A stretch of DNA of 64,000 bases from Methanocaldococcus sp. 16A (GTDB taxonomy: Archaea > AGJL01 > Methanococci > Methanococcales > Methanocaldococcaceae), in NCBI GenBank assembly GCA_049860595.1, contig CP187551.1. The stretch is one strand, 5' to 3'. Positions 4,986 through 59,610 of this stretch are shown one piece after another. Positions within the stretch are counted from its first letter, which is position 1; each line of letters opens with the position of its first letter. The position numbers and the translations under genes are program-made. The notes below the pieces were generated by a model. The model saw nothing but the letters and a program-made list of their open reading frames with translations. It ran no database searches and was not told the DNA's origin.

Positions 4986-5048
4986 CTACTCTCTATGAGA
5001 GCTTTCTACATCTTAGAGAATATTAGAATAGATAATAGATAAAGTAGT

Positions 5049-36304: not shown

Positions 36305-36319
36305 ATTAATTTTTCTAAT
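36305..36319. promoter_or_regulatory. Candidate operator ATTAAT-TTT-TCTAAT upstream of the yedE pair (weaker copies at 36332 and 36362)
   Basis: Exact reverse complement of the copy at 48733-48747. Confidence 0.5.
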
Positions 36320-36430
36320 AACCAAATATCCATTAGATTTTTTTACAAAAAATTTTTTATAATTAGAAATTTTAAATAAACCATAGCATCTTCTAAATAC
36401 CATATTAAAAAACCTAAAGATGGTGAGGAA

Positions 36431-36889
36431 ATGAGAATTTCCCCATTAACAGCAGGGTTGATAGGAGGTTTTACAGCAGCAATGTTGCAAGCATTGTTTA
36501 AAGTGTTTCCACCTCCAGCTTATGGTATCTGTATAGCATGTCACACAAGAGATTTAGTAAATTGGATTGTCAATCACTTATTTGGAACTTCATTAGGTTT
36601 AGCTCCTGTATCAAAAGTTTTTCCTGTTTTAACTGTTGTAGGTATCTTTATTGGGGCTTTAATAGCCGCATTTGTTCATAAAGAGTTTAAAATAAAACAA
36701 ACCCACAACCCAGCTATTGGTTTTATTTTAGGAATTTTGGTTATTAATTTTGCCCTATTAATGGGAGGTTGTCCTGTTAGAGAGACTTTAAGAACAGCTT
36801 ATGGAGATATTATAGCGTTGATTAGTTTAATAGCTATGTTTGCTGGGGTAGTTGTAGCTAGTGAGGTTTACTTAAAAAGAAACCTCTAA
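36431..36889 (+). CDS. YeeE/YedE sulfur-selenium transporter, N-terminal half
   Basis: YGICIACHTRD and MGGCP motifs, TM helices. Confidence 0.8.
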   Translation: MRISPLTAGLIGGFTAAMLQALFKVFPPPAYGICIACHTRDLVNWIVNHLFGTSLGLAPVSKVFPVLTVVGIFIGALIAAFVHKEFKIKQTHNPAIGFILGILVINFALLMGGCPVRETLRTAYGDIIALISLIAMFAGVVVASEVYLKRNL

Positions 36890-36908
36890 AAATGTTTAGG
36901 GTGGTTTT

Positions 36909-37382
36909 ATGGAATATCTTCACGTAATTGGAACATTTGTATTTGGAATAATTTTAGGTTATTTATTCCAGAGAGCAAGAATGTGTTTTGTTGGAGGAAT
37001 GAGAGATTTCTATTTAATAAAAGATACATGGTTAATCAAAGGTTTATTTGGGTTCTTTGCTGGAGCATTAATTGGATATATTATATTTAGTGCTGCTGGA
37101 TTAATTTCAGCATTTCCATGGTTTGTTGATAAAGGATTATCCCCAATACCAGGAGACCCATTGGGCGCAAGTGGAACTTTAATGGGGCATTTAATAGTGG
37201 CTATTATTGGTGGATTTGGAGTAGGATTTTTCTCAGTTATTCAAGGAGGTTGCCCATTAAGAAACTACGTTATGGCTGCTGAAGGGAATAAAACAGCTAT
37301 TGCCTACGTGTTTGGATTAGCCGTTGGAGCAGTTATATTCCATAAGTTTGTAGCTCCATTAGTAAAAGCAATATTAATTTAA
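36909..37382 (+). CDS. YeeE/YedE sulfur-selenium transporter, C-terminal half
   Basis: QRARMCFVGGMRD and GGCPLR motifs. Confidence 0.82.
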   Translation: MEYLHVIGTFVFGIILGYLFQRARMCFVGGMRDFYLIKDTWLIKGLFGFFAGALIGYIIFSAAGLISAFPWFVDKGLSPIPGDPLGASGTLMGHLIVAIIGGFGVGFFSVIQGGCPLRNYVMAAEGNKTAIAYVFGLAVGAVIFHKFVAPLVKAILI

Positions 37383-37415
37383 AAATTTAAATCTCTTTTT
37401 TTCTTTTGTGAGAGT

Positions 37416-37886
37416 ATGAAAGGAAAAAAGATAGCTATTGTTTCTCACTGCATATTAAATCAAAATAGTGTTGTTAATGGTTTAGAGAGAGCTGAAGGGG
37501 CTTTTAATGAGGTTGTTGAAATTCTTTTAAAGAATAATTATGCTATAATCCAATTACCATGTCCAGAGTTGCTATATTTAGGAATTAATAGAGAAGGAAA
37601 AACAAAAGAGGAATATGACACAAAAGAATATAGAAAACTATGCAGAGAACTTTTAAAGCCGATAATTAAATATCTGCAAGAATATACAAAAGATGACTTC
37701 AAATTTATTTTAATTGGAATAGAAAACTCTCCAACATGTGATATTTTTAAAAATAGAGGAATCTTAATGGAAGAACTTTTAAAAGAGATTGAGATATTAG
37801 ACATTGATGTTGAGATAATTGCATATCCAAAAAATGAAGAAGATTATGAAGAATTTATAAAAAATTTAAAGAAGATGATAGAATGA
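37416..37886 (+). CDS. TudS/DUF523-related putative desulfidase (CD3072-like)
   Basis: HCILNQNS, QLPCPE, SPTC, GILME. Confidence 0.72.
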   Translation: MKGKKIAIVSHCILNQNSVVNGLERAEGAFNEVVEILLKNNYAIIQLPCPELLYLGINREGKTKEEYDTKEYRKLCRELLKPIIKYLQEYTKDDFKFILIGIENSPTCDIFKNRGILMEELLKEIEILDIDVEIIAYPKNEEDYEEFIKNLKKMIE

Positions 37887-38614
37887 TTTTGGGAATAGAT
37901 GTTGGCTCTACAACAACAAAAATGGTTTTAATAGAAGATGAGAGAATAGTTTGGTATAAAATAGAGGATATTGGAGTTGTTATTGAAGAAGATATTTTAT
38001 TAAAAATGGTTAAAGAAATTGAGCAGAAATATTCAATAGATAAAATTATAGCAACTGGATATGGAAGGCATAAGATTAGTTTTGCAGATAAAGTAGTTCC
38101 AGAAGTTATTGCTTTAGGAAAAGGAGCTAATTATTTCTTTAATGATGCGGATGGAGTTGTAGATATTGGAGGACAGGATACAAAGGTTTTAAAAATTAAT
38201 AAAGATGGAAAAGTTATTGATTTTATCCTATCAGATAAATGTGCCGCTGGAACTGGAAAATTCTTAGAAAAATCTTTAGATATTTTAAAAATTAATAAAA
38301 ATGAAGTAAATAAATATAAATCAGATAATGTTGCTAAAATATCATCAATGTGTGCAGTTTTTGCTGAAAGTGAAATAATAAGCTTACTGTCTAAAAAAAT
38401 TCCAAAAGAAGAGATTTTAATGGGAGTTTATGATAGTATAATAAATAGAGTTATTCCAATGATAAACAAGCTTAAAATACATAATATAGTATTTAGTGGT
38501 GGAGTCGCTAAAAATAAAGTTTTCGTTGATATGTTTGAAAAAAAGTTAAATAAAAAGCTTTTAATTCCAGAAGAACCGCAAATTGTTTGCTGCGTTGGAG
38601 CCATATTAGTGTAA
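37883..38614 (+). CDS. ASKHA [4Fe-4S] ATPase activator (HgdC/DCCP-reductase type)
   Basis: GIDVGSTTTK, ATGYGR, DIGGQDTK, KCAAGTGKFLE, SMCAVFAESE. Confidence 0.88.
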   Translation: MILGIDVGSTTTKMVLIEDERIVWYKIEDIGVVIEEDILLKMVKEIEQKYSIDKIIATGYGRHKISFADKVVPEVIALGKGANYFFNDADGVVDIGGQDTKVLKINKDGKVIDFILSDKCAAGTGKFLEKSLDILKINKNEVNKYKSDNVAKISSMCAVFAESEIISLLSKKIPKEEILMGVYDSIINRVIPMINKLKIHNIVFSGGVAKNKVFVDMFEKKLNKKLLIPEEPQIVCCVGAILV

Positions 38615-38625
38615 ATTTAATATTA

Positions 38626-39765
38626 TTATTTTTCACTTAAGAATAACGGTGGCAAGCTATCATCAACACCTGGAACATAACCAAAGGTATCTCTAATCTT
38701 CAACTGCATTCTGTGGAATATATAAGCTAAAGGGATATCCATTGGGCAGACATCTTCGCATTGCCCACAATTTATACAGCTTTGAGATATATGGCTCAAT
38801 CTAATCCCCTGGAACATTAAAGGATTTGGCGGGATTTTTCCTTTTTCATCAATATAATCTTTCTCTAATCTACATTCAACACAGAAGCAGAGTGGGCAGT
38901 TGTCTCTACAACCATAACACTTTATACACCTATTCCAATATTTCTGCCACTCTTTAAGATTTGGATATTCATCTTCCAAATGTATTTTTTGGAATTTTTT
39001 AGCCAACTTTATCATGACATTCTCTATTTTCTCTCTAATTTGAATTGCCTTTTCTGAAGGTTCTTTAATTTTGATATAGCCTTCTTTTTCAGCATCCTCA
39101 ACTAATTTTTTTCCTTTTTCTGAACAGATTTCAACAAACGTCCAGCCCTTTTCAGCTCCCCAATTTCCACAAGCTAAATCAGCCATTCTTGGAACCATAA
39201 CTTCACATCTTTGGCAGTTCTTCCTTCTACCAAAACCTTTTTCTTCTAACTCATCTATTTTGATAGCTTTATGTTCTCCATTTTTTAATTCAATAATAAA
39301 CTTCCCCTTATCTATTTCTTCCTTAACAACATCTAATGGATTAACTTCATAAAATAGCTCAATCATTTTCATAGCAGTTATTGGACTTATTGTCCCTCCA
39401 CAATTCAAACCAATCATATAGATGTTATCTAAATTTACCTGGTTTAACTTTGCCAACTCTCTAATCGCCATCGCATCACATGGTTTAGTAGAGACAGCAA
39501 TTTTTTTATTACTCAAATATTTGCTAATTATCTTTCCAAAATTTGTTGGTGCACAGTGCAAAGAGCCAGCAGTTTCTATCAATTCATCAGAATTCGTTAT
39601 AAATGCTGGAATTCCATCATAAATATCTTCTCCTCTCTTTAAAGCTAAAACTCCATCAACAAGCTTGTTATCTAATAAATATTTAAATAGGGCTGTTACT
39701 GCCCCTCCACATTCTGCTCTCTTTAAAATTTCATTATCTGTAGCTTGGATTAATGCATATTTCAT
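38626..39765 (-). CDS. fdhB: F420-binding FdhB-type subunit (ElpB-like)
   Basis: [32 protein letters not shown], two ferredoxin motifs. Confidence 0.85.
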
Positions 39766-40880
39766 AATACCACCTTAGTTATTTCTTTTTGAATGTCTTC
39801 TAATGAATTGAACCCTAAATCAATTCCAAGCTTTTCAGCTAAGCTTTTTATTATAAGATAATCATCCATAGCTTCTCCAGGAGGGTTTACAGCTTTGTTT
39901 ATTTTTTGAATTCTTTTATCAGTGTTTGTAAAGGTTCCCTCTTTCTCAGCCCAACAAGTTGAGGGTAGAACTACATCAGCTAATTCAGCTGTTTCACTCA
40001 TTATAATATCTTGGACAACTAAAAATTCAGTATTTTTTAGTGCATCTTTATCGATTAAAGCTGGATTTTCCCCCATTATGTATAAGAACTTTGAGTTTTT
40101 CAATAACTCAAAATATTCATCTTTATTTAAAGGAGGAATGCCAATAAGTGTTGCCCCTACAGTATTGCAGTGCTTAGCAACTGGCAAAACTTTAGCAATT
40201 TTAGGCATTTTATCAACATCTATTGGTGCATTGATTATAATAATAGTGTTTTCATCAACATTACCTAAATCAATATCCTCATAGCTATCAACCTTTACGA
40301 ACTTGTCGGCATTTAATTTTAGGATATCTTTCTCCTCTATATTGAAAATTGTTACCTTAGCCCCTTTATCCTTTGCCCTAACAACCTTTCTTCCAATTAA
40401 TGCATGTTGCCCAAAAACATCACCAATAATTATGATGTTTTTTGCGTTCTCAATGTCATCAATTGTTGTAGAAATTTCAGCATAATTGGCTTTAGGAGAA
40501 TTGCAGATACAATGCCCAATTTTAGCTTTTAAATTATCAGCCAACTTTTTTAATGCATAGTTGTCTTCATTTGTACATTTTCCAGAGGCAATAAATGTTA
40601 TGTCATCAGCATCATAGCTCTTTAATTTCTCTGCAATAAAGCTTAAAGCTTCATCCCAACTGACTTCAACAAACTTTCCATTCTTTTTAATTAATGGCTT
40701 TTTTAATCTTTTCTCATGGTAGATTATTTTGTAGCTATTTTTTCCATTTAGACAGTTTTTTCCTTCACTTATTGGATGTCTCTTGTATGGATAAGTACCA
40801 ACAACTTTGTTATCTTTGACGATCAAATCAATTCCACACCCAACACTACAAGTTGGGCAAATTGTATGAACAACCTTCAT
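39762..40880 (-). CDS. Truncated FdhA-like protein lacking Mo/W-bisPGD segments (ElpA-like)
   Basis: N-terminal CPTCSVGC...KNC [4Fe-4S]; only 372 aa; GHCICNSP replaces the catalytic loop; no C-terminal dinucleotide-binding domain. Confidence 0.75.
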
Positions 40881-40899
40881 GTTATCACCTTATTATTAT

Positions 40900-41274
40900 T
40901 CATGAGGCAACCTTTTGAGCTGAGATCTCAACAACTGGAATTGTCTTGATTTCAACATGCATTTCCTTTGTGAGATTTATCATGCCTACTAAAATTTGAA
41001 GCAATCTATCCAATATTGATTGTGAGATGTCCTTTGAAATACAGTCAATATTTTCATCGAACTCTACAACTCCCTCAACAATAAACGATATTGAAAGTTC
41101 ATCTATTTTTAAATTGTATACATAACCATATGAGTTGTCACTAATTTTCTTGTATTCAATGTTCCAATCCATATCTAACTCCAACCTCTGATTTTTTGGA
41201 TTTTCTTTTGGTCTTACTAATCTTAGCTTTTCTATGCTTATTTTCATATTCATTATAATCACCGTATTACTCAT
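40900..41274 (-). CDS. Hypothetical protein heading the FdhA/B-like module
   Basis: 124 aa, strong RBS GGAGGTGA, own TTTATATA box near 41307-41300. Confidence 0.7.
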   Translation of the reverse strand: MSNTVIIMNMKISIEKLRLVRPKENPKNQRLELDMDWNIEYKKISDNSYGYVYNLKIDELSISFIVEGVVEFDENIDCISKDISQSILDRLLQILVGMINLTKEMHVEIKTIPVVEISAQKVAS

Positions 41275-41403
41275 ACATTAATATCACCTCCCATTTTTGT
41301 ATATAAAATTTACTACTTAATTCAAATTATTATTACTAAAATAATACAAAATTTTAAAAAGTATTACTCAACTGACAAAAAATTATAATTGGGCATTATT
41401 AAT

Positions 41404-42711
41404 CTACAAAAACTCCTTAACTTTCTTAATGAGCATCTTTAATATCTCTCTATCTGGTAAAACTCCATCTGGAGGGTCTATAACCTTCTTTAACTGAATT
41501 GGAACTCCATCCATTCTATAGGCAGTTCCTTCGCATTCTACTCCTGCAATTGCTGGTGGGATAATGATGTTAGCCAACTCTGATGTAGGTGTGTTATGAG
41601 GGTCTATGCAAATTAATGGGATTTCTGCCATTCTTTCAACTGCTTTTTGTGGAAAGTGTGCTCCAGGGTCTGAGGCAATGTTGAGCATAGCATCTGCCTC
41701 TTTTCTAATTAATAAATCTGTTATACTCGTATCTCCTGGATTGAATCTCGGATAGCCTCTTGAAAAATCTACACATAATGGAAAACCAGTAACCCATGTA
41801 CATACTTGATTAAATCCATTTACGTTGTAGTGTCCTCTCATTGGCATTAGTTCAAATTTTGTATAAGCATTTAAATCAATGATTAATTGTATAGCATTAT
41901 CTATATTCCTATGCTTACCTCTTGATTGAGTAACTCCCATACCAAAGAATAAACATCCAAACTGAGCTTTTTTACAAATTTCCATTGCTTCATAGATTAA
42001 ATCTGCTGGAACTCCAGCGACTCTATCTACTTGCAATTCAAATCCTTTTAACACTGCTCTCATTGCACTAACTAATTCATAATCCTTATGCTGTTCAACT
42101 TGCAAGTGTATATCTGCTAATTTTGCAGTATCTGTCTCTCTTGGGTCTACAACAATAACTGTTCTATCTTCTCTTCCTCTTTCTCTGAAAAATCCTCTTG
42201 CAAATACTGAATATCTACTCATATGTCTTGGGTGGGCGTGCATTGGATTGCTACCCCAAAAGATAATTACATCAGCTCTATTTTTAACCTCTCCTAATGT
42301 ACAAACTGGGTATCCTACATCTTGCAATGCCCAAACACTTGGACCGTGGCAAACTTCTGCTGTATTACTAACAACTCCTCTAATCAATTCTGCCAATTCT
42401 ATACCATATACATGTGCATGGCATTCAGTAGCAGAGAATCCATAAATTACAGGTAAATTTGATTCAGCCAATATTCTTGCTGTCTCTTCAATTGCTGTGT
42501 CAATATCAACTTTTTTGAAGTTATCTTTCTTGTTTTCTCTCATTAATGGCTCTCTCCATCTAATTGCCCCTTCAAAATGCATGAACTTAGCATGTCCAAT
42601 TCTACAAGCATTTCTTGTTCCTATAATATGCCCATCATCATCCACTATAACTACAATATCATCACATAATGTTCCACAGAATGGACAGACAACATTTTTT
42701 ATCTCTCTCAT
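41404..42711 (-). CDS. fwdB: Formylmethanofuran dehydrogenase subunit B, cysteine isoform (FwcB type)
   Basis: CPFCGTLCDD, AEVCHGP (Cys ligand, no TGA), HAHPRHMSRY, RGHYNV. Confidence 0.9.
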   Translation of the reverse strand: MREIKNVVCPFCGTLCDDIVVIVDDDGHIIGTRNACRIGHAKFMHFEGAIRWREPLMRENKKDNFKKVDIDTAIEETARILAESNLPVIYGFSATECHAHVYGIELAELIRGVVSNTAEVCHGPSVWALQDVGYPVCTLGEVKNRADVIIFWGSNPMHAHPRHMSRYSVFARGFFRERGREDRTVIVVDPRETDTAKLADIHLQVEQHKDYELVSAMRAVLKGFELQVDRVAGVPADLIYEAMEICKKAQFGCLFFGMGVTQSRGKHRNIDNAIQLIIDLNAYTKFELMPMRGHYNVNGFNQVCTWVTGFPLCVDFSRGYPRFNPGDTSITDLLIRKEADAMLNIASDPGAHFPQKAVERMAEIPLICIDPHNTPTSELANIIIPPAIAGVECEGTAYRMDGVPIQLKKVIDPPDGVLPDREILKMLIKKVKEFL

Positions 42712-42741
42712 CTTTATCACCCTTAAAAAAGATTTAAAAAT

Positions 42742-44706
42742 TTAAGCAGGGTCTTTGAAAGCTCCTTCAATTTGTTTATACAGTTGAATTGTTTTGAAGT
42801 GATTCTGCTCTAAAGCTCCACTTGGACATCCTGCAACGCAAGTTCCACATCCTTTGCATAACGCAGCAATAACCTCACAAACTACTCTGCCATCTTTCTC
42901 AACCAACCTTGGAGCTCCATAAGGGCATTGTTTTACACAAACTCCACAGCCCCCACAGATTTCTTCATTTACTGTTGCAACTATAGGTTCTACTTCAACC
43001 TCCCCCTTAGCTAATGGAATTGCTGCCCTTGCAGCTGCTGCAGAACCTTGTGCAACTGATGCTGGAATATCCTTTGGCCCTTGACAAGCTCCTGCTAAAT
43101 AAACTCCATCTGTTGCTGTATCAACTGGTCTCAATTTTGGGTGTGCCTCCATGAAGAAATTATCCGGAGTTCTTGAAATTCCTAATATTCTTTGGATTTC
43201 ATCTGCTGATTTTGTTGGAACCATTCCTACAGATAAAACAACCAAATCATACTCCTTCTCAATAATTTCTCCTAATAAAGTATCTTCTGCTCTAATAATG
43301 AGATTTTTAGTTTTTGGGTCCTCTAAGATTTGAGCAGGTCTTCCTCTTATGAAGTTAATGCCATATTGCTTTGCACTCCTTTCGTAAAACTCTTCATATC
43401 CTTTGCTAAATGCCCTAATATCCATATAGTAAATATCTATCTCAGTATCTGGAGATTTTTCTTTGATTAATTGAGAGTTTTTCATTGCATACATACAGCA
43501 GACATTGGAGCAGTATTTGTTTCCAACTTTTGCATCTCTTGAACCAACACATTGAATGAATGCAATTCTTTTTGGCTTTTTGCCATCACTTAACCTAATA
43601 ACCTTTCCTCCTGTTGGACCAGAAGCATTAATCATCCTTTCTAATTCAAGAGCTGTTATAACATTATCGTAAATTCCATATCCATACTCTTCCCTAACTG
43701 TTGGGTCAAATACATCATAACCAATAGCACAAATTATTGTACCTACTTCAACCTCAATGTACTCTGGTTTTTGATTAAAGTTTATAGCTTTAGGACCGCA
43801 AACTTTAGCACATAATCCACATTCTATACAGTGCTCTTTGTCAATTGTGTATTTTGATGGAACTGCCTGTGGAAATGGCTTGTAGATAGCTTTTCTCATC
43901 CCTAAGCCCATATCAAATTCATTCGGCACTTCTATTGGGCAAACTTCTGCACACTGTCCACAACCCGTGCATTTTGTCTCATCAATGTATCTTGGCTTTT
44001 TCATAATCGTAACTTTAAAATTCCCTATGTATCCTTGAACATCTACAACCTCTGAGTATGCATAAAGTTTTATGTTAGGATGTTTTGCAACATCAACCAT
44101 CTTTGGAGCTAAGATACAGATAGAGCAATCATTTGTTGGGAAAGTTTTATCTAGTTGAGCCATTCTACCTCCAACAGAAGGAGATTTCTCAACCAATATT
44201 GTTTCAAATCCCATATCTCCCAAATCCAATGCCGCTTGAATTCCTGCTACCCCTCCTCCAATAACCAATGCTCTCTTTGTAACTCCAACTTTAATAAATT
44301 CTAATGGCTCTAACAGCCTTGCTTTTGCAACAGCCATTCTAACTAAATCTTTTGCTTTTTCAGTAGCTTTCTCTTTTTCATGCATATGAACCCATGAACA
44401 ATGTTCCCTTATATTTGCAAACTCAAATAAAAATGGGTTGAGACCAGCTTCAGCAACACATCTTCTAAATGTTGGTTCGTGCAACCTTGGAGAGCAAGCT
44501 GCGACAACAACTCTGTTTAGATTGTATTCTTTAATGTCTCTTTTAATCATCTCTTGCCCAGGATCTGCACACATATACTTATAATCTCTCGCAACAACGA
44601 CATTTTTTAATGTCTTGGCAAATTCAGCAACTTCCTTGCAATCAACTACTCCTCCAATATTTACCCCACAATGGCAAACATAAACACCAATTCTTGGTTC
44701 TTCCAT
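42742..44706 (-). CDS. hdrA: Heterodisulfide reductase subunit A, cysteine isoform
   Basis: [41 protein letters not shown]; no in-frame TGA. Confidence 0.93.
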
Positions 44707-44727
44707 ATTACCACCTTCAATATGGCA

Positions 44728-44742
44728 ATTAGATTTTCTAAT
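44728..44742. promoter_or_regulatory. Candidate operator ATTAGA-TTT-TCTAAT upstream of hdrA
   Basis: Perfect palindrome between an AT-rich TATA-like tract (~44775-44790) and the hdrA RBS. Confidence 0.6.
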
Positions 44743-44790
44743 AGGTTGAAGAATGAAATTATAATGATGAATCTTAATATATTAAAAAAT

Positions 44791-45963
44791 TTATTTCAAC
44801 TCTAAAACTTTCTTTTTTTCGGCTTCAGCGCAGGAGAGACAGAGGAGGCACATTACGCAATAACCTTTTAGAGGCAATTTGCCTCTTGATAATCTTAAGG
44901 TTTTCATTGGGCAGACTTCGACACATTTTCCGCATTTATCACACAAGTATGGGCTAAATTCAATTCTGTTGTATTCCTTACCATTATGCTCTATCTTACC
45001 CAACTTTAAAGCACCAGTTGGGCAAGCTACAGTACATGCTCCACAGACAATACACATTCTAACTTCTTTTTTCTTATCATCTACAACAATCGCTTCAGTT
45101 GGACAGACAGAAGCACATTTCTTCAATACATCGAAATCCTCTTCTACAATAACTAAACCTTCATCAGTTATCGGATGTGGAGAGGCTAATTTAACATCCA
45201 ATTCTAAAGCATCGACTGGACAGATATTTACACATAGCTTACAAGCAGGACATGATTTTGGTGGAACAACAATCATATTTTCCTCATCGACCTTAATCAT
45301 ATCTCCTGGACAGATTTCAACACACTTTAGACAGTAAATACATTTTTCTGCATCAACATCAAATTTCTTAACTTCTTTTCTCCTCTTCTTAGGTATCTTA
45401 CCTGCTACAAAGATGGCATTCCATGGACACGTTTGGGCACAAATACTGCAGTAAATACACTTGCTTTTATCAATAACTGCCTTGTTATCTTCTAAGGTTA
45501 TTGCATCTACAGGACATTCTGGAACACAGATTCCGCAGCCTACACAAGCGTCTGTAACCGCTATAGGTTCTTTTGGAGCTTTAACTTCTTTTTTAGGTTT
45601 GTCTATAATCCCTGGTAAAGAGATAATTTCAATTGGACAAACTTCTATACATTTTTGACATAAAACGCAATGTCCTTTTGAGTAAGGGAAATCATCATCA
45701 ACCTTCTTAATCCCTACAGGACATACCTCCGCACAGGCTCCACACTTCTCACACTTATGAGCTAAGTAATTAACTCTCTTCACAGTTTTTCCTTCAATCT
45801 CTATCTCTTCCTCTACTAACGCCCCTGTCGGGCATACATTGACACACTGCATGCATAATGTACACACATTAAAACTGTCTATATCTATCGCTTTTGTCGG
45901 ACATTCTGCCTGACATGCATAGCACACTAAACACGCTTCTCTCTGGATTGATACTCCACTCAT
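44791..45963 (-). CDS. vhcB: Polyferredoxin (MvhB/VhcB)
   Basis: Many tandem CxxCxxCxxxCP motifs; follows the hydrogenase large subunit. Confidence 0.85.
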
Positions 45964-45964
45964 A

Positions 45965-47383
45965 TTATCCCACTATTTTCTTTAATAATCTACTTCCTTG
46001 GAAGATTTCTAATGATAATTTGCTTTCACCGCCAATTATGTGGGTTGCACATGATAAGCATGGGTCGTAAGCTCTAATTACCATTTCCATATAGTTTAAA
46101 ACTTGGGAAGTAGCATCTTCAGGTCTTCCAATGTATTTTTCAGCAACTTTTCTAACACCAATATCCATAGCAGGGTTGTTTTGAACTGTCGCAACTATTA
46201 GGTTTGCATCAGTTATAATTCCATCTTCATTTGTCTTGAAGTGGTGAATTAAAGTGCCTCTTGGTGCTTCTACACATCCCACACCTTCTCCAACAATATC
46301 CTCTGGTTCTGCTCTAATGTCAGTATCCACAATCTTATCATTCTCTAAAAGCTCTTTTACTTTTTCAGAACTTGATAAAAGCTCTATTAACCTTGCATAG
46401 TGGAAGAGCATTGGATAATGGCATGGCTTTCCAAATTCTTTAATGAATTCTTCATAATACTTTTGTGCTAATGGTGTAGCCATTTTATCTGCAACATTTA
46501 GTCTTGATAAGGTATTTACTCTATATATTCCCTCTTCTGGGCCTTTATCTTTTAAGTATGGGAATTTTAAATAAGAGTAGGGTTTAACTCCCTCAGCTAT
46601 ATAATTTAGATACTCTGATGGATGAAATTCATACTCAACTTTTCCCTCTGCATTTACAACTCTCAATTTTCCATCGTAGAGTTCATGAACTCCATCATTC
46701 ACCATTCCCATATGGTAGGATTCAAAATATCCAATATCTAACAAATCATTTTCTTTTAAGTTTTCAATAAGTTTTTTTCCAATTTCAATGGATTTTTCAG
46801 AAAGTTCAATCGCTCTTTCTGAGAGTTTTAATAGTTCATCCCTCTCTTCTTCTTTTAACGGTTTTGACTGACCTCCAACAACTGCTGTAACTGGGTGGAT
46901 TGCCCTACCTCCAACAACTTTAACAATTGTCTGCCCTATTTTTCTCAACTCTATTGCATCTTTAACAATTTCCTTATTTTCCTTAGAAATTGTCAAGATG
47001 TTTCTTTTTAAAATATCATCTGTTGTTGGGAACATTAAATCAGGAGAAGCTAAGAAATAAAAGTGTAGAGCATGACTGTGGATTGTTGCCCCTTGATGCA
47101 TTAAATTTCTTAAAAGTTCAGCAGTTTCAGGAATTTTTACACCAAAAACTTCATCAACAGCCTTAGCACTTGCTAAATGGTGAGCTACTTGGCAAATTCC
47201 ACATATTCTTGGAGTGTAGATTGGTGCATCCTCTATATATCTCCCTTCCAAAAATTTTTCAAATCCCCTTACTTCAACAACATGAAAATGAACTTTATCT
47301 AAATTCCCATTCTCATCAAAGGATATTGTTATTTTTCCATGCCCTTCGACTCTTGTTACTGGTTCAACTGACAATTTTACCAT
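45965..47383 (-). CDS. vhcA: F420-non-reducing [NiFe] hydrogenase large subunit, unsplit Cys type
   Basis: RVEGHG, RICGIC and C-terminal DPCLSCATH in one chain (no separate Sec-containing VhuU). Confidence 0.9.
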
Positions 47384-47396
47384 CTTACCACCTAAA

Positions 47397-48302
47397 TTAT
47401 CTTAATTTTCCAGGAATTAAAGCACTTGGAAGAGTAAATTTGTAAAAACTACCAATTTTATCTTTTATTGATTTTGGCAATGTAGTTGGGTCTGTTTCTC
47501 TATCTTTATCAATTCCAAAGTCTGAGCATAAGGCGGAAATCATCTTAGCCCCTTGGTCAATAACAGCATCTGTTTTACCATAACAACCGCTACATGGAAC
47601 TCCAACTTTTGGGCATATAGCTCCACAACCAGCTCTTGTTGCAACACCTAAACAAAGATAACCCTGTTCTAAAAGACATATCTCTGGGTCTACTTTCCCT
47701 TCATATTTTCTTTTTATTGTTTCAATTACAACACCATCACTACTTTTTTTCCTTGGACACTCATCACATAAGTTTTTCTTTGGCAATTCTGGTTTTTTAC
47801 CTTCTAATAATGCTTTAAATACCTTGGCTATAATTTCTGGATTTGGTGGGCATCCAGGGATGAAATAATCAACATCTATAACTTCAGAGAGCGGTTTAAC
47901 TCTTGAAGTTAATTGAGGAACTTCTTCACTTGGGATAATGCCTTCATCATTCTTTGTTGATAGAGTTGTTTTATACACCTTCTCCAAGATTTCGTCTTTT
48001 GAATATAGGTTTCCTAAACCAGGAACTCCCCCATAAACAGCACAAGTTCCAAAAGCAATAACTATTTTTGCCTTTTCTCTCATTTCTTTTGCAATTTCTA
48101 AGTTCTCTTCATTTCTTATTCCACCTTCAATTAATGCGATATCAATCTCATCCGGAATTTCCTTAACATCCATTAACACTGGGCAATGAATGAGCTCAAC
48201 ATTCTCTAACAAGTTTAAAAGCTCTTCATGTAAATCTAACAAGCTTATATGGCATCCAGAGCAACAGCAAAGCCAAGTAGTTGCTATTTTCACTACAATC
48301 AC
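47397..48302 (-). CDS. vhcG: F420-non-reducing hydrogenase small subunit
   Basis: [32 protein letters not shown]. Confidence 0.9.
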
Positions 48303-48722
48303 CTATTCTTTTAATTTTTCATTTAATTTTAATGGACCGAGAGATTTTATTGTATTGTAGAATTCAATCATTGTTTGCTGGAATTTTTCTCCCTCTGATG
48401 CTGAAATCCATTCAAATCTAAATCTCTCTGGCTCAATTCCAAACTCTGGAAGTAATTCTTTTAAGAAAATAGATCTTCTTTGCCATTTGTAGTTTCCAGC
48501 ATCATAGTGGCAATCTCCTAAGTGGCAACCTCCAACAAAAACACCATCTGCCCCCTCTTTAAAAGCCTTTAAAACAAGAGATGGCTCAATTCTTCCAGAG
48601 CACATCACTCTAATTATCCTTATACTTGGAGGATACTGCATTCTACCAACTCCAGCAGTATCTGCCCCTCCATATGTGCACCAGTTACAACAAAAGCCTA
48701 TAATTTTTGGCTCCCACTCCAT
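48303..48722 (-). CDS. vhcD: MvhD-type [2Fe-2S] subunit, cysteine isoform
   Basis: [29 protein letters not shown]; ATG at 48722 with GGTGAGAGG RBS. Confidence 0.9.
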
Positions 48723-49044
48723 CCTCTCACCTATTAGAAAAATTAATATGTATATTACTTTTTTCAATATTTGCTTAAAACATAACCAATATTTAAAAAA
48801 TACTATTGAAATCAAATAGAAAATTTTATATATGATATTATACTATTTAATATTGTTAATTTACATATATAAATTTTATACCATCACATTTTCTAATAAT
48901 TACTAAGACATCAAGAAAATTGAAGGTAAAATTTTTAATATTGGCAATATAGTTTTTTAGTAAAAATTTTCAAAAATTTGGACAAAATATATACAATATA
49001 TTAGAAAATCTAATGACTAAATAGATATTAGATTTGGTGATATA
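48723..49044. promoter_or_regulatory. Divergent promoter region with repeated ATTAGA-N3-TCTAAT boxes
   Basis: Copies at 48733-48747, 48883-48897, 49000-49014 (perfect) and 49027-49041; TGACTAA at 49014-49020. Confidence 0.6.
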
Positions 49045-50163
49045 ATGCAACTAAAGGCAATAGAAAAATTAATGCAAAAATTTTCTAATAGAAAAGAACA
49101 ACTCTATAAGCAAAAAGAAGAAGGGAGAAAAGTTTTTGGAATGTTCTGTGCTTATGTTCCAATAGAAATAATTTTAGCAGCAAATGCAATTCCTGTTGGT
49201 TTATGTGGAGGTAAAAATGACACAATCCCAATAGCAGAGGAGGATTTACCAAGAAATCTCTGCCCATTAATAAAATCATCCTATGGATTTAAGAAGGCAA
49301 AATCATGTCCTTACTTTGAAGCATCAGATATTGTTATTGGTGAAACTACTTGTGAAGGGAAGAAAAAGATGTTTGAATTAATGGAAAGGCTCGTTCCTAT
49401 GCATATAATGCATCTTCCACATATGAAAGATGAAGAATCTTTAAAAATCTGGATTAATGAAGTTGAAAAGTTAAAAGAGTTGGTTGAAAAAGAAACAGGG
49501 AATGAAATAACTGAAGAGAAATTAAAAGAAGCTATAGATAAAGTAAATAAACTTAGAGAGTTATTCTATAAGCTTTATGAATTAAGAAAAAATAAACCAG
49601 TCCCAATTAAAGGATTAGATGTTTTAAAAATATTCCAATTTGCTTACTTATTAGATATTGATGACACAATAGAAGTTTTAGAAGATTTAATTAAAGAGTT
49701 AGAAGAGAGAGCTAAGAAAGGAGAAGGTTTTGAAGGAAAGAGAATCCTAATAACTGGCTGTCCTATGGTTGCTGGAAACACTAAAATTGTTGAACTCATT
49801 GAAGAAGTTGGTGGAGTTGTGGTTGGTGAAGAAAGCTGTACTGGAACAAGATTCTTTGAAAACTTTGTTGAAGGTTATAGTATAAAAGATATAGCAAAAA
49901 GATACTTCAAAATACCTTGTGCTTGTAGATATAAGAATAATGAGAGAATAGAGAATATAAAAAGATTGGCTAAAGAGTTGGATGTTGATGGGGTTGTTTA
50001 TTACACATTACAGTGCTGTCACACATTCAATATTGAAGGAACTAAAGTAGAAGAGGCATTAAAAGAGGAAGGCATTCCAATTATTAGAATTGAAACTGAT
50101 TACTCTGAAAGTGATAGAGAGCAGTTAAAAACCAGGTTGGAGGCATTTATTGAGATGATTTAA
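49045..50163 (+). CDS. Double-cubane cluster protein (2-hydroxyacyl-CoA dehydratase fold)
   Basis: [50 protein letters not shown]. Confidence 0.8.
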
Positions 50164-50225
50164 AATAAAAATCCTTTAATTTTCTATTTTTAATTTCCAA
50201 CTGGCAAGTTTCTATATCATAAGAT

Positions 50226-50240
50226 ATTAGATTTCTTAAT
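50226..50240. promoter_or_regulatory. Candidate operator ATTAGA-TTT-CTTAAT
   Basis: Inside the extended palindrome GATATTA...TAATATC (50223-50243), just upstream of a TATA-like TTTATATA. Confidence 0.5.
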
Positions 50241-50288
50241 ATCCAATTTTATATATCTTAATTACATTAATACATTTTTTGTGAGAAC

Positions 50289-50936
50289 ATGATAGGAATT
50301 TGCATGCGCTCCGAGAAAGAATATACTTTTAATAATAAATTGGTGGATTGGGGTTTACATTATAATCCAAAAATAGTTAAAAAAAATAATATTATAGGCT
50401 ATCATGCACCAATTTTAAATTTGGATGAAAAAGAGAGTGTTTTTATTTTAAAAAATATAATTGAAAATATTAAAGGAAGAGATTATTTAACAATCCACCT
50501 ACATAATGGAAAAAATAAAGATATTGATAAAGAACTTTTAATTGAAAATCTATCAATAGTTAATGAATTTGCACAAAAAAATAATGTAAAATTATGCATA
50601 GAAAATTTAAGAGAAGGTTTTTCATCTAATCCAAACAATATAACTGAGATAGCAGATGAAATTAACTGCTTTATAACATTTGATATTGGACATATCCCAT
50701 ACAACAAACGATTAGAATTTTTAGACATTTGCTCTGATAGAATTTACAACTCCCACGTTTATGAGATTGAAATGAATGGAAAACATCTACCTCCTAAAAA
50801 TCTTAACAATTTAAAACCAATATTAGATGCTCTCTTAGACGTTAAATGTAAAATGTTTTTAATTGAATTAATGGATATTAATGAGATTTTAAGTACTGAA
50901 AAGATGATAAAAGAATACTTAGAAACTTATAAATAA
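50289..50936 (+). CDS. Xylose isomerase-like / AP endonuclease 2 TIM-barrel protein
   Basis: HAP, TIH, CIENL, TFDIGH, HVYE, HLPP. Confidence 0.75.
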   Translation: MIGICMRSEKEYTFNNKLVDWGLHYNPKIVKKNNIIGYHAPILNLDEKESVFILKNIIENIKGRDYLTIHLHNGKNKDIDKELLIENLSIVNEFAQKNNVKLCIENLREGFSSNPNNITEIADEINCFITFDIGHIPYNKRLEFLDICSDRIYNSHVYEIEMNGKHLPPKNLNNLKPILDALLDVKCKMFLIELMDINEILSTEKMIKEYLETYK

Positions 50937-50968
50937 ATTCAAAAGCTAAGGATAAAGGTGGATAAGTT

Positions 50969-51799
50969 ATGTTATTTCATCAAAACCTCCAAAATTTTAT
51001 TGATTTTAAGAAATCTTTTAAAGAGCTAACGCTATCTGATGAAACATTTAAAATAATTGAAGAAAATGGTATAAAGTTAAAAGATATTGCCATAGGAGAA
51101 TTTTCAGGTAGAGATAGTGTAGCAGCAATAATTAAAGCTATGGATGAAGGTATCGATTTCGTTTTGCCAGTTGTTGCATTTACTGGAACTGATTATGGAA
51201 ATATAAACATTTTTTACAAAAACTGGGAAATTACAAATAAAAGAGTTAAAGAAATTGATAGAGATAAAGTTTTATTGCCATTACATTTTATGTTCGAACC
51301 AAAACTTTGGAATGCATTAAATGGAAGATGGGCAGTTTTACTTTCAAAAAAATATAACTATTACAGCCCATGTATTGGATGCCATGCATATTTGAGGATA
51401 TTGAGAATCCCTTTGACTAAGCATTTAGGAAATAAAATAATCAGTGGGGAGAGGGTTTATCATAACGGAGATTTTAAAATCGACCAAATAGAAGAAGTTT
51501 TAGATGTTTATAGTAAAATTTGTAGAGAATTTGATGTTGAGCTAATTTTGCCTATAAGATACATAAAAGAGGGAAAGAAAATCAAAGAAATTATAGGAGA
51601 TGAATGGGAACAAGGACAAAATCAATTTTCATGTGTTTTTAGTGGAAATTATAGAGATAAAGACGGAAAAGTAATTTTTGAGAAAGATAGCATTTTAAAG
51701 TTATTAAATGAGTTTATATATCCTGCATCAATTGAGATTTTAAAAGAAGGATACAGAGGGAATTTTAATTATCAGAATATTGTAAAAAAGTTCCTTTAG
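50969..51799 (+). CDS. PP-loop (adenine nucleotide alpha-hydrolase-like) protein with CxxCH
   Basis: FSGRDS loop, PCIGCHAY, ISGER. Confidence 0.65.
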   Translation: MLFHQNLQNFIDFKKSFKELTLSDETFKIIEENGIKLKDIAIGEFSGRDSVAAIIKAMDEGIDFVLPVVAFTGTDYGNINIFYKNWEITNKRVKEIDRDKVLLPLHFMFEPKLWNALNGRWAVLLSKKYNYYSPCIGCHAYLRILRIPLTKHLGNKIISGERVYHNGDFKIDQIEEVLDVYSKICREFDVELILPIRYIKEGKKIKEIIGDEWEQGQNQFSCVFSGNYRDKDGKVIFEKDSILKLLNEFIYPASIEILKEGYRGNFNYQNIVKKFL

Positions 51800-51806
51800 T
51801 GAGAAA

Positions 51807-53093
51807 ATGAGGGCTATTTTAATATTATTAGATGGTTTAGGAGACAGGGGTTGTGAGATTTTAGATAACAAAACACCATTACAATTTGCAAAAACACCAA
51901 ACTTAGATAAATTGGCTGAAAATGGCATGTGCGGTTTAATGACAACATATAAAGAAGGAATTCCCTTAGGAACTGAAGTTGCCCATTTTTTACTTTGGGG
52001 TTATTCCTTAGAAGAATTTCCGGGAAGAGGAGTTATTGAGGCATTAGGAGAGGATATAGAAATAGAGGAAAATGCCATATATTTGAGGGCTTCTTTAGGA
52101 TTCGTAAAAAAGGATGAGAAAGGATTTTTAGTTGTAGATAGAAGAGCTAAAGATATCAGCAGAGAAGAAATTGAGAATTTAATAAATTCTTTACCTACAT
52201 GCATAGATGGATATAAGTTTGAGCTATTCTATTCTTTTGATGTCCATTTTATATTAAAAATTAAAGAAAAAAATGGATGGATTTCAGATAAAATCTCTGA
52301 TTCTGACCCATTCTATAAAAATAGATATGTTATGAAAGTTCAACCAATAAAAGAGTTATGCAAAAGTAGTGTAGAATATAACAAAGCAAAAGACACTGCA
52401 AGGGCTTTAAACAAATATCTTTTAAATGTTTATAAAACCCTACAAAATCATAAAATAAATAGAAAAAGAAGAAAAATGGAAAAAATGCCTGCTAATTTTT
52501 TATTAACAAAATGGGCATCAAGATATAAAAAGGTAGAGAGTTTTAAAGAAAGATGGGGTATGAATGCTGTAGTTTTAGGTAGTAGTTCATTATTTAAAGG
52601 ATTAGCAAAATTCTTAGGAATGGATTTTATAAAGATTGAAAGTTTTGAGGAAGGAATAAATTTAATTCCTGAGCTAAATTATGATTTCATTCACTTGCAT
52701 ACAAAAGAAACTGATGAGGCTGCCCACACAAAAAATCCCTTAAATAAAGTAAAAGTTATTGAAAAGATTGATAAACTTATAGGCAATTTAAAATTAAATG
52801 ATGATGATTTACTTATAATAACTGCAGACCACTCAACACCTTCTGTTGGAGATTTAATTCATTCTGGTGAAAGTGTTCCAATAATATTTTATGGAAAAAA
52901 CGTTAGAATCGATAATGTTAAAGAATTTAATGAAATAGCCTGCTCAAATGGACATTTAAGAATAAAAGGTGAAGAATTAATGCCTCTAATTTTAAACTAT
53001 ACAAATAGGGCACTATTATATGGTTTAAGAGCTGGAAATAGGTTAAGATACTATATTCCAAAGGATGATGACATAGAACTTTTGCAGGACTAA
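51807..53093 (+). CDS. Second ApgM-like phosphomutase (MJ0010 type)
   Basis: LLDGLGDR, LGTEVAH (Thr at the nucleophile position), DEAAH, TADHSTP. Confidence 0.85.
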   Translation: MRAILILLDGLGDRGCEILDNKTPLQFAKTPNLDKLAENGMCGLMTTYKEGIPLGTEVAHFLLWGYSLEEFPGRGVIEALGEDIEIEENAIYLRASLGFVKKDEKGFLVVDRRAKDISREEIENLINSLPTCIDGYKFELFYSFDVHFILKIKEKNGWISDKISDSDPFYKNRYVMKVQPIKELCKSSVEYNKAKDTARALNKYLLNVYKTLQNHKINRKRRKMEKMPANFLLTKWASRYKKVESFKERWGMNAVVLGSSSLFKGLAKFLGMDFIKIESFEEGINLIPELNYDFIHLHTKETDEAAHTKNPLNKVKVIEKIDKLIGNLKLNDDDLLIITADHSTPSVGDLIHSGESVPIIFYGKNVRIDNVKEFNEIACSNGHLRIKGEELMPLILNYTNRALLYGLRAGNRLRYYIPKDDDIELLQD

Positions 53094-53143
53094 GTTTTTT
53101 GAATGGTATCCAATTTCTAAAATATTTAATTATAAAAGTCATA
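53074..53143 (-). mobile_element. Degenerate MITE copy 6 overlapping a gene end
   Basis: TAGAACTTTTGCAGGA is identical to the left end of copy 4; degenerate AAAAGTCATA other end. Confidence 0.45.
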
Positions 53144-53167
53144 TGATTGAGCTGTTGGAGGGATAAT

Positions 53168-53728
53168 TTGATAGGAAAATTAAAGAGTATGTTTGGATTA
53201 AAAAAAGAAAAAGAAACAGAAAAAGATAGCTTAGAAGGAAAGGGATTAATTATATTTGAAAATACAAAGGATGCCATGAAGGCAGAGAATATTTTAAAAG
53301 ATAAATATAAAATTAAGGTGGTTGCTCCTCCAGTAGAGATTAGAGAGGGATGTGATTTGGCAATAGAATATGAGTTAATTGACGAATTTGGAATTAAAAG
53401 AGAATTAGAGAATAACAACATAAAACCTTTAAAATTTATCTCTTTAAATGATTATTCTTTAAAACCATTAGAGTTAATAAAAATTAAAGAAGTTGATGGA
53501 TTTATTTTAGTTAGATGTGGAAATATGAAGATAACTATTGATAAAGAAGGAAATATAGTTAATATCTCTGGTGGTGGTTGTCCTGATGTTCCTTATTTAG
53601 CATTAAAATTAAAAGGAAGAAATATTAAGGATATTAAAGAAGATGAAACTCCAAAAAATTTAGGCTTTACCTTATGTGCATACACATTAAATAAAGCATT
53701 TGAAAAGGCAAAAGAATTAATATCTTAA
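53168..53728 (+). CDS. DUF3343 (putative Se/S carrier-like) protein with Cys-containing C-terminal domain
   Basis: IIFENTKDAMKAE...APPVEIREGCDLAI; CGNM, GGGCPD, TLC. Confidence 0.75.
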   Translation: MIGKLKSMFGLKKEKETEKDSLEGKGLIIFENTKDAMKAENILKDKYKIKVVAPPVEIREGCDLAIEYELIDEFGIKRELENNNIKPLKFISLNDYSLKPLELIKIKEVDGFILVRCGNMKITIDKEGNIVNISGGGCPDVPYLALKLKGRNIKDIKEDETPKNLGFTLCAYTLNKAFEKAKELIS

Positions 53729-56265: not shown

Positions 56266-56266
56266 A

Positions 56267-57979: not shown

Positions 57980-58464
57980 AGAGATTGATAACCTTATGAA
58001 ATAGATTTTGTAGTCTTCTACATCTTGATGATATAACATCTAATAGTACAACCACAAACATCGTCGCTCTTAATCTTTCCCAATATTGAATCAACTATTG
58101 CAACAAATCGTTATCTAAAATATCGAGAGGTTAGATAGTTGATTAGAGGCCTTCTATTTATTAGAATATCATTTGTGTTGCTAACTTATTCTTTATCACT
58201 GTTTTTTATGAAGTATTTAAGTTATATCTATTTCTATTTTTTTGATTTTAAGGCAGATATCGTTAATTCACACTCAGTAAAATATGGTGTAGTGTGATAA
58301 TATAAATATTACAAAAATTTTGTCACCTAAAATATTACTAAACAAATAGAAATTATTATATATTGATGACTATTATGCATATAATTATTTGTAAAAATTT
58401 TAAAAATGTGATATTTTGAATATGAAAAGAATTAGAATTTTGTTATGGGGATTATGCGATTTGA

Positions 58465-58740
58465 GGCAGTGATTTTTACATAATGATAAATCATATCCTA
58501 CAAAATGCTGTAATACCAATAATTCCTCTTGTAACTCTAATGTATTGCTAGTTTGAGTTTTCTTGGTTGGGTGTTCAGCTACAACTCCTGAACTAGGGCT
58601 TATGTTGAAAGAAAATGACATACATGGATACAGCATCACGGTTGATGTTTTTTCTAGGTTTGTTGTTGTCAATTTGCATATTATTATTTAATACTCTTGG
58701 AAATGCACTAAGAGGCATTCTCGATCCAGGAAGGGAAAAA
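58465..58740 (+). pseudogene. Decayed C-terminal part of a DppC/NikC ABC permease
   Basis: Frameshifted segments GSDFYIMINHI / NAVIPIIPLVTL / IASLSFLG / TPELGLML / FNTLGNALRGILDP align with the 62683-63546 product. Confidence 0.7.
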
Positions 58741-58775
58741 TGTAATATAAAGATATTATCAAAAAAGGTGATATA

Positions 58776-59408
58776 ATGGATATTAAAGAATATATTAAAT
58801 CAAGATGGGATCATCATGCAAAAAACTACGATGATATACCAGCACACGGTATAAATTCTGAAAAAGATAAAAAAGTTATTAAAAATGCTTTACAGAACAT
58901 ACTTGGAAAAGGAAAAAAAGTTCTTGATGTTGGGTGTGGAACAGGTTTTTTATCATTAATCTTGGCTGAATTAGGACATGAAGTTATAGGTGTTGATATA
59001 TCGGAAGGGATGATAAGTAAAGCGAAAAAGAAAGCCAAAGAGAAGGGATATGATATTTTATTTATGATTGCAGATGCAGAAAATTTGCCTTTTGAAAATA
59101 ACTCTTTTGATGCAGTTGTGGAGAGACACATACTATGGACACTCCCAAATCCAGAAAAAGCCATTAGTGGATGGTCTAAACTTCTAAAAAATGGAGGTAA
59201 ATTAATATTAATCGAAAGTGAAAAAAAGGAAGAAAATATTGCCAGCCACCATTACAATGAAGAAATTGCAAAGAAACTCCCTTTTTCAAACGGTATAGAT
59301 TTGGAAAAATTCAAAGAGATTGCAAATAAATGCAATTTAACATTTAAAGTAGAAACTTTGGACTGCGAAAGAATAAATTTAATGATTATTTGTGAAAAAA
59401 TTTTCTAA
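58776..59408 (+). CDS. Class I SAM-dependent methyltransferase
   Basis: VLDVGCGTG, DAENLPF, RHILWTLP. Confidence 0.88.
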   Translation: MDIKEYIKSRWDHHAKNYDDIPAHGINSEKDKKVIKNALQNILGKGKKVLDVGCGTGFLSLILAELGHEVIGVDISEGMISKAKKKAKEKGYDILFMIADAENLPFENNSFDAVVERHILWTLPNPEKAISGWSKLLKNGGKLILIESEKKEENIASHHYNEEIAKKLPFSNGIDLEKFKEIANKCNLTFKVETLDCERINLMIICEKIF

Positions 59409-59595
59409 TTTTTTTGTTTATTTAATTTATTTAATTTTGATGTTATTGTTAATTGTATATAATATGTGCGTAATTAAGATTATTAAAAAATTAATTTTTG
59501 GTTGTAGAATGATAGGACTGTTAGAGTATTTAATTGAATCCTTGATATACAATTGAAAAGATTCATGTAGAATTTTCTTCATTGTATCCAATGCT

Positions 59596-59610
59596 ATTAA
59601 AAAATCTAAT
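59596..59610. promoter_or_regulatory. Candidate operator ATTAAA-AAA-TCTAAT
   Basis: 59593-59613 matches the reverse complement of 44725-44745 at 19 of 21 positions. Confidence 0.45.

Follow-up and report, generated by a model that had tools for sequence, protein, structure and literature searches.

Why should one interrupted palindrome, ATTAGA-N3-TCTAAT, stand before gene after gene in a single island of an archaeal genome? The question is raised by a stretch of 64,000 nucleotides from Methanocaldococcus sp. 16A (contig CP187551.1; C1:192001-256000 of genome G000 in our numbering; hereafter the window), in which copies lie between 36 and 60 kb. A sequence-only reading of the window had proposed these copies as candidate operators of HrsM, a LysR-type regulator. 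HrsM and the negative element of the vhc-frc intergenic region are known from M. voltae and M. maripaludis (Noll 1999; Sun & Klein 2004; Quitzke 2018, as cited in PMC11097638 and PMC5322559), and according to the introduction of one of the citing papers HrsM represses the cysteine isogenes by binding the frc-vhc intergenic region (PMC11097638). Our analysis leaves little doubt that the dyad is a genuine cis-element of a selenium regulon. It is probably also the operator at which HrsM is predicted to bind throughout that regulon, which appears to be conserved.

The genome measures 1.62 Mb with a G+C content of 30%. Genes were called by a simple longest-open-reading-frame routine, by which 10.5% of the genome was labelled intergenic (168.6 kb, 75% A+T; this set contains RNA genes too). 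Gene identities are based on NCBIfam and Pfam scans of the region from 36 to 60 kb, and 40 related genomes from two families served for comparison. Two copies of the palindrome in the window are perfect:

44728..44742: perfect palindrome ATTAGATTTTCTAAT, 21 bp upstream of the ATG of hdrA (cysteine form)
49000..49014: perfect palindrome ATTAGAAAATCTAAT, 30 bp upstream of the double-cubane reductase gene and 6 nt after the TATA-like AAATATATA

Only 0.02 such copies were expected in the window, and none of 100 dinucleotide-preserving shuffles reached two. Genome-wide there were four perfect copies, all of them intergenic. Outside the window, one was found 11 bp before the gene for a ModA-like substrate-binding protein and another between selD (selenocysteine form) and the remnant of an RlaP-like gene. 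When intergenic palindromes of the 6-N3-6 type were ranked, ATTAGA-N3-TCTAAT occupied rank 9 (4 copies versus 0.08 expected from intergenic hexamer frequencies, P = 1.6 × 10−6), and seven of the eight palindromes above it have G+C-rich halves. The eighth, the AT-rich ACTTTT-N3-AAAAGT, has six intergenic copies genome-wide versus 0.28 expected. A motif frequency no higher than the intergenic background would have spoken against the proposal; perfect copies were found 50- to 100-fold over expectation.

The same element emerged when no prior motif was given and the island's 13 intergenic regions (2267 bp) were compared with the remaining intergenic DNA: ATTAGA/TCTAAT was the top over-represented 6-mer (15 versus 3.04, P = 8 × 10−7), and TATTAGA/TCTAATA the top 7-mer (9 versus 1.21). 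In the 40 relatives the pattern had 86 perfect copies, compared with 15 for a reversed-pattern control of identical composition. Among 47 distinct sites, 76% had a T at −1 and 76% an A at +15, and the spacer was 96% A/T; these flanks lengthen the motif to 17 bp, T-ATTAGA-WWW-TCTAAT-A. Perfect and orthologous copies alike retained the G and the C of each half-site. Perfect copies occupied the place of the hdrA site at 44728 in G001, G011 and G014, and the core at 49000 was invariant in five of six aligned genomes of genus g1 (G001 differs by one base). The double-cubane orthologue of G018, a member of the other family, was likewise preceded by perfect copies.

Six intergenic copies with one mismatch were found in G000, including that at 59596 in the window and one in the promoter of hrsM itself. 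Others with one mismatch lie 75 bp before tusA-dsrE, 55 bp before the selenocysteine form of hdrA (hdrA-Sec), before the gene for an HrcA-type regulator with a winged helix-turn-helix (wHTH) and CBS domains, and beside a CBS-protein gene and ribosomal genes (C1:415828). A further one-mismatch match (C1:91146) falls inside an open frame of 350 codons. At the selD locus (L004; G000 C1:1222787-1225136), an IS6-family transposase lies between the selD-side palindrome and the 94-aa RlaP-like remnant; G015, G010 and G001 have an intact RlaP-like gene of 239-243 aa.

Which protein might read this site? The LysR_Se gene at C1:1090903-1091793, here called hrsM, encodes HTH_1 and LysR_substrate domains and scored 273.8 bits with NF040786 (cut-off 250). 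It was the sole G000 protein above the cut-off, the next match reaching 20.4 bits, and in a phylum-level search matches to NF040786 were confined to G000 and 39 of the same relatives. The copy in its own promoter, ATTAGTTAATCTAAT (read towards the gene; one mismatch), follows the TATA-like TTTATATATA by 6 nt and precedes the ATG by 25 bp. A copy with at most two mismatches was seen beside a TATA-like box in 20 of 30 hrsM loci (genera g1, g2, g3, and g5, from two families). Thirteen g1 loci, including that of G000, retain ATTAG-TTAWY-YTAAT at the promoter position, and in eight genomes of the other family (g2, g3, g5) ATTAGTTTTT(C/T)TAAT abuts TATATAT at a different distance to the ATG.

The shape of the dyad is also that of a LysR-type site. 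LysR-type transcriptional regulators are said to bind typically as a dimer to a highly symmetric regulatory site, often in their own promoter, and their box is given as T-N11-A with dyad symmetry, e.g. ATAC-N7-GTAT for BenM (PMC11495319). The T-N11-A fit that had been claimed is correct: ATTAGANNNTCTAAT has 11 bases between T2 and A14, and each half is the exact reverse complement of the other. Shared with the bacterial boxes are the interrupted dyad, a T and an A 12 positions apart, the own-promoter copy and a graded symmetry among copies (PMC11495319). In contrast, the present sites stand in an archaeal context of TATA box and B recognition element (BRE), with half-sites of 6-7 bp and a 3-bp A/T spacer, and the bacterial layout of a regulatory plus an activation site is clear only at hdrA-Sec. 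Among archaeal systems a likeness exists to NrpR, a methanococcal repressor whose operators are inverted repeats in the nif and glnA promoters of M. maripaludis: both are palindromic operators near the TATA box or transcription start that serve a nutrient regulon. They differ in protein family, sequence and signal.

Perfect copies were fetched from 18 of the relatives. Of these 60 copies, 46 were intergenic and 14 coding, with an A/T-only spacer in 40 of the 46 and in eight of the 14, respectively. Flanking genes were assigned by best match to G000 proteins and by Pfam. By our tally, 37 of the 46 intergenic copies flanked orthologues of island genes or of selenium-responsive genes of M. maripaludis:

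double-cubane reductase gene: 8 copies
mtd/ZIP pair or ZIP: 6 copies
selD/RlaP-like gene: 4 copies
hdrA, cysteine form: 3 copies
TIM-barrel gene: 3 copies
hmd: 3 copies
vhcD, divergent from a frcA-like gene: 2 copies
tusA: 2 copies
yedE: 2 copies
activase gene: 2 copies
modA-like gene: 1 copy
corrinoid protein gene: 1 copy

Four more copies, all in genus g4 (L095, L100, L102, L106), precede by 26 bp a gene of the HesB/IscA type (PF01521, 28.9 bits) that contains an in-frame TGA; the gene was checked in L095, and the flanking sequence of the other three reads alike. The HesB-like homologue of G000 (C1:1145780-1146064) has no copy. Among the last five of the 46, one stood beside a G3E GTPase gene and two had no facing gene.

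The g4 genomes also link the motif to the region at which HrsM is reported to bind. Where vhcD is divergent from a frcA-like gene, the intergenic region of G025 and G030 has a perfect copy that precedes vhcD by 11 bp, and a further mid-region copy has one mismatch in G025 and two in the aligned position of G030. The corresponding region of G029 has two copies with one mismatch each, and those of G027, G022 and G026 carry copies with 1-3 mismatches at −152, −112 (abutting TTTATATATT) and −66. The system of G000 shares with that of M. voltae and M. maripaludis the NF040786 family, the vhc target (copies at 48733, 48883 and 49000) and the selenium logic, and dyad copies in frc-vhc-type regions extend the likeness in g4. 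It differs in that vhc of G000 is divergent from the double-cubane gene and not from frc, that hdrA has its own copy, and that the motif marks many genes beyond the hydrogenases. No frc was found in G000 with the frcA-like query used, the best match being 50% identical.

The putative targets appear to coincide with the selenium stimulon measured in M. maripaludis JJ, so far as orthology allows expression in the present organism to be predicted. In that expression study, selenium depletion raised (log2) vhcDGAB by 10.9 to 13.8, hdrA by 10.0, fwdB by 9.25 and frc by 8.3 to 9.7; ModA by 5.79 and an HgdB-type dehydratase subunit by 5.84; TusD by 4.6, TusA by 4.5, Hmd by 5.23 and DUF3343 by 2.28; and two YedE genes by 5.3 and 5.4 (PMC11097638). 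MMJJ_09720-09740, encoding a xylose-isomerase-like TIM-barrel protein, a hypothetical protein and ApgM, rose by 5.47, 2.11 and 2.76 (PMC11097638), and the TIM-barrel, hypothetical and apgM genes at 50289-53093 of the window have the same order. Genes that were lower on depletion comprised hdrA-U/vhu/fwuB (−3.4 to −4.3), a HesB-like gene (−2.24) and that for the Mtd protein (−3.75) (PMC11097638). The overlap between the two organisms therefore covers vhc, hdrA, fwdB, ModA, HgdB, TusAD, Hmd, TIM-barrel/ApgM, YedE and DUF3343; the difference is that the measurements come from another organism and are of expression only (PMC11097638). When seven G000 promoters were picked by orthology to this stimulon, four had a copy with at most one mismatch and six a copy with at most two, compared with 1.6% (16) and 6.9% of 1013 upstream regions (hypergeometric P about 10−6; the set was chosen after the sites had been seen, and vhcD and the double-cubane gene in it share one intergenic region). 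Dyad shape, a sole LysR_Se gene, the copy in the hrsM promoter and the stimulon overlap together support the candidate HrsM operator, as a prediction.

Besides this choice of promoters after the fact, several points weigh against the operator. A copy near hrsM was not seen in 10 of 30 loci: the best match had at least three mismatches in G016, G003, G013, G038, G020, G017, G035, G029 and G025, and at the G002 locus a match with two mismatches lies away from the TATA-like box. G000 encodes a second LysR-type HTH_1 protein (282 aa; L335 675-1523, G000 C1:1252175-1253023), in which a LysR substrate domain was not detected. No copy with fewer than three mismatches precedes hmd (one of the stimulon orthologues), the fruA-like gene, fwdB or the fdhA-like gene in G000, and in M. 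maripaludis the mRNA of sps (selD) was unchanged by selenium (PMC11097638). A regular spacing to a second (activation) site is not general among the 47 sites, the peaks being driven by orthologues only. Coding and intergenic labels come from a crude caller, and two needed correction (48733 and C1:91146); the relatives are not independent of each other; and the placement of copies with respect to TATA-like boxes was judged by eye on predicted promoters. Finally, matches with up to two mismatches did not exceed chance as a class in the window (22 versus 15.7 expected; 9 of 100 shuffles reached 22).

Half of those 22 matches were coding and half intergenic (with 48733 relabelled); 10 of the 11 intergenic ones lie between 36 and 60 kb, and the remaining one, with two mismatches, at 5022 outside the island. 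Since the near-perfect class is at chance level, the weak copies rest on their orthologous positions and not on statistics of their own. They are:

36305..36418: degenerate cluster before yedE, with copies at 36305 (two mismatches), 36332 (three), 36362 (two) and 36404 (three)
48733..48747: copy ATTAGAAAAATTAAT (two mismatches), 10 bp upstream of the vhcD ATG (48722), abutting the ribosome-binding site
48883..48897: distal degenerate copy ATCACATTTTCTAAT (two mismatches), 147 bp upstream of the double-cubane gene
49027..49041: possible weak second site ATTAGATTTGGTGAT (three mismatches), 27 bp from the perfect copy at 49000
50226..50240: copy ATTAGATTTCTTAAT (two mismatches), 48 bp upstream of the TIM-barrel gene and 6 nt before TTTTATATAT
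59596..59610: copy ATTAAAAAATCTAAT (one mismatch), 85 bp upstream of the cyclophilin-like gene

The near-perfect copies had been placed correctly by the sequence-only reading, with two mismatches each at 36305, 48733, 48883 and 50226 and one at 59596; the identity of 19 in 21 bases claimed for 59596 holds against the reverse complement of the hdrA site. That all seven copies are intergenic is true given that vhcD starts at the ATG at 48722 and not at the upstream TTG of the longest open reading frame. This start was adopted because the VhuD model aligns from residue 35 of that frame and the orthologues have 139-154 aa.

The four copies with two mismatches match positions at which relatives have perfect or better ones. 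Perfect copies lie 10-11 bp before vhcD in G001, G025 and G030, and the orthologue of the TIM-barrel gene has a perfect copy 31-45 bp ahead of it in G010, G001 and G013. The copy at 48883 aligns with a perfect dyad in G010, and its half TTTTCTAATA is invariant in five of six genomes; in the alignment of six g1 genomes upstream of the double-cubane gene (mean column identity 55%), this half and the copy at 49000 are the blocks that stand out. At 23 yedE loci the best copy was perfect in 2, had one mismatch in 11 and two in 10, and copies recurred at about −126, −99, −69 and −26. The site at 49027 is weak, because its 27-bp spacing recurs only among orthologous promoters. For 59596 no orthologous counterpart was found in four other loci, where the gene lies in or beside the yedE cluster. 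Half-sites between 57980 and 58399 are isolated and form no dyad; this segment of 420 bp has no open-reading-frame call and a partly coding-like composition, and may be a gene remnant.

Could the recurrence be a product of base composition, either as chance matches in an AT-rich genome or as core-promoter sequence in a TATA/BRE context? Intergenic DNA with 75% A+T, a two-mismatch class at chance level and the several copies that abut TATA-like boxes would fit such an origin. Nevertheless we consider it very improbable, as perfect copies exceed expectation 50- to 100-fold even when intergenic 6-mer frequencies are used, the reversed pattern reaches only 15 against 86 in the relatives, and the G and C of the half-sites persist in perfect and orthologous copies. 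The enrichment of the 6-mer in the island contradicts it as well, and so does the concentration of copies with at most one mismatch on selenium genes, such copies being present in just 16 of 1013 upstream regions. An RNA hairpin in the leaders, acting in attenuation, processing or translation control, would account for those copies that follow a TATA-like box but precede the start codon, and so are potentially transcribed. We give this hardly any credence: with −1.2 to −2.7 kcal/mol at 37 °C the stems have very little stability, other copies are situated upstream of a TATA-like box (the TIM-barrel operon and hdrA-Sec in G000, hmd in g4), and it is the dyad sequence that is conserved and not pairing by way of compensatory changes. 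No Rfam family was found in 35000-61000. A hairpin or known RNA family was rejected on the weak stems and the lack of an Rfam match.

More weight, though still a small one, is due to the suggestion that the dyad is a real operator of the selenium regulon but is bound by another regulator, either a protein with HTH_1 only or an uncharacterised winged-helix protein, and that HrsM recognises something else. The binding of HrsM to the dyad itself is a prediction, the 282-aa HTH_1 protein is encoded in the same genome, the copy near hrsM is missing in a third of the loci (10 of 30), and a one-mismatch copy precedes the gene for the HrcA-type wHTH+CBS regulator. However, this last copy has at most one mismatch only in G000 and G011 among 20 loci printed, and the promoter conserves a different repeat, TTTATAATCA. 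The wHTH+CBS regulator was rejected as the binder because the copy before its gene is not conserved. Direct repeats of TTTATAATCA were seen upstream of this gene (G000 C1:1368643-1368760; L160-L189) in most of the 20 loci, in both families, and are probably the regulator's own operator. HrsM is favoured by the conservation of the hrsM copy across two families, by the T-N11-A fit (PMC11495319), and by its reported binding to the frc-vhc region (PMC11097638, introduction), a region with copies in g4 genomes; we therefore regard another binder as unlikely.

The sequence-only reading had also tentatively matched TGACTAA at 49014 to the negative-control heptamer of the M. voltae vhc-frc region. The heptamer is indeed present there, but as a functional element of G000 it was rejected because it is neither enriched (three in the window and 71 on C1, both strands) nor conserved; the position reads AAC(T/C)AAA in five of six aligned genomes. 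Heptamer repeats are known from the frc promoter of M. voltae. In G025 the complement TTAGTCA occurs three times in tandem (L110 2100-2125), at the frcA-like end of the 453-bp frc-vhc-type region, and this repeat contains ATTAGT, a half-site variant seen at hrsM.

How might HrsM act at such sites? Four placements were distinguished by eye in G000: the copy follows a TATA-like box by 6 nt at the double-cubane gene and hrsM and by about 15 nt at hdrA (cysteine form), precedes it by 6 nt at the TIM-barrel operon, and stands immediately before the ribosome-binding site at vhcD and the modA-like gene. Steric repression, acting on an archaeal promoter or on early elongation, would be compatible with all four. 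An HrsM dimer, or dimer of dimers, would bind the 17-bp dyad and, when selenium is sufficient, block the assembly or passage of the transcription machinery; selenium starvation would release it, and the cysteine back-up enzymes would then be expressed together with the selenium-scavenging genes. Both the direction of control and the effector are assumed in this scheme, and the copy in the hrsM promoter would provide negative autoregulation. The hdrA-Sec/vhu promoter may be served differently. Upstream of hdrA-Sec a distal copy with 1-2 mismatches is present in g1 genomes, and in 24 of 29 loci a degenerate proximal ATTAGnnAGTTTAAG-like element was read 3 nt before ATATATTTTTATA. We hypothesise that this pair, which lies upstream of the TATA box and resembles the layout of a regulatory plus an activation site, may mediate activation, which would fit the lower expression of the operon without selenium.

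A wider picture can be offered tentatively, though we think it rather less than an even bet: a single LysR_Se protein, acting through one 17-bp dyad whose placement relative to the TATA box varies, would form a two-way global selenium switch. It would silence the cysteine back-up and selenium-scavenging genes, activate selenoprotein operons (hdrA-Sec/vhu; the HesB-like gene in some genera) and reach hmd and mtd in some lineages, with conservation in both sampled families of the order. On this view the heptamer repeats of G025 would represent half-sites of this operator in a degenerate form (ATTAGT).

The genes of the island on which these sites are found were identified by NCBIfam and Pfam as follows, the last by PF04126:

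36431..38614, plus strand: split yedE (36431-36889, 36909-37382), TudS-like gene, coenzyme A-substrate activase gene
38626..44706, minus strand: frhB/fdhB-like gene, short fdhA-like gene, fwdB, and hdrA without in-frame TGA
44791..48722, minus strand: vhcB, vhcA, vhcG and vhcD (hydrogenase without in-frame TGA, cysteine type)
49045..53728, plus strand: double-cubane reductase, TIM-barrel, hypothetical, apgM, and DUF3343 selenium/sulfur-carrier-like genes
59696..60070, plus strand: cyclophilin-like gene (PF04126)

The fdhB-like and fdhA-like genes, fwdB, hdrA and vhcBAGD all read without an in-frame TGA. The fdhA-like gene (39762-41274) is short, encoding 372 aa (375-380 aa in relatives), and aligns with no more than parts of the Fdh-alpha model, which has 672 positions; in another frame the gene is preceded by an open reading frame of 124 aa without family matches. 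The hdrA of the island (42742-44706) is a second paralogue, of the cysteine type, and was found in only 4 of 17 g1 genomes (G000, G001, G011, G014), so that the distribution of the cysteine back-up island in this genus is patchy. The closest named matches of VhcD were from Methanocaldococcus sp. (99%) and Methanothermococcus sp. (89%); the homologue search was dominated by MvhD of Methanobacteriales, with no named Methanococcus locus among the matches. In G028 and G013 the cyclophilin-like gene is no more than about 1.5 kb away from yedE, and this proximity suggests a selenium-related role for its product.

Neither the regulator nor its family is new, nor is its role at vhc/frc. Among archaeal transcription factors HrsM is, to our knowledge, the only one known to respond to selenium. 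In the literature searched we found no account of a consensus, of order-wide conservation, of the copy in the hrsM promoter or of a target list defined by the motif; the primary M. voltae papers may already define one copy. Funkner et al. (2024) is an expression study, in the main text of which the terms 'motif', 'palindrom' and 'binding site' are absent (PMC11097638). About 126 genes are given there as responsive without separation of direct from indirect targets, and the transfer of the signal through HrsM is stated to be unknown (PMC11097638).

With a conserved operator consensus, the distinction between direct and indirect HrsM targets becomes testable. It predicts the promoters that the regulator would touch, that of hrsM included, and gives the exact bases to mutate in existing reporter strains. 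In both sampled families of the order, the motif also links little-understood genes to selenium supply: the double-cubane reductase, the TIM-barrel/ApgM operon, the cyclophilin-like protein, the split YedE, TusA-DsrE and the ModA-like binding protein.

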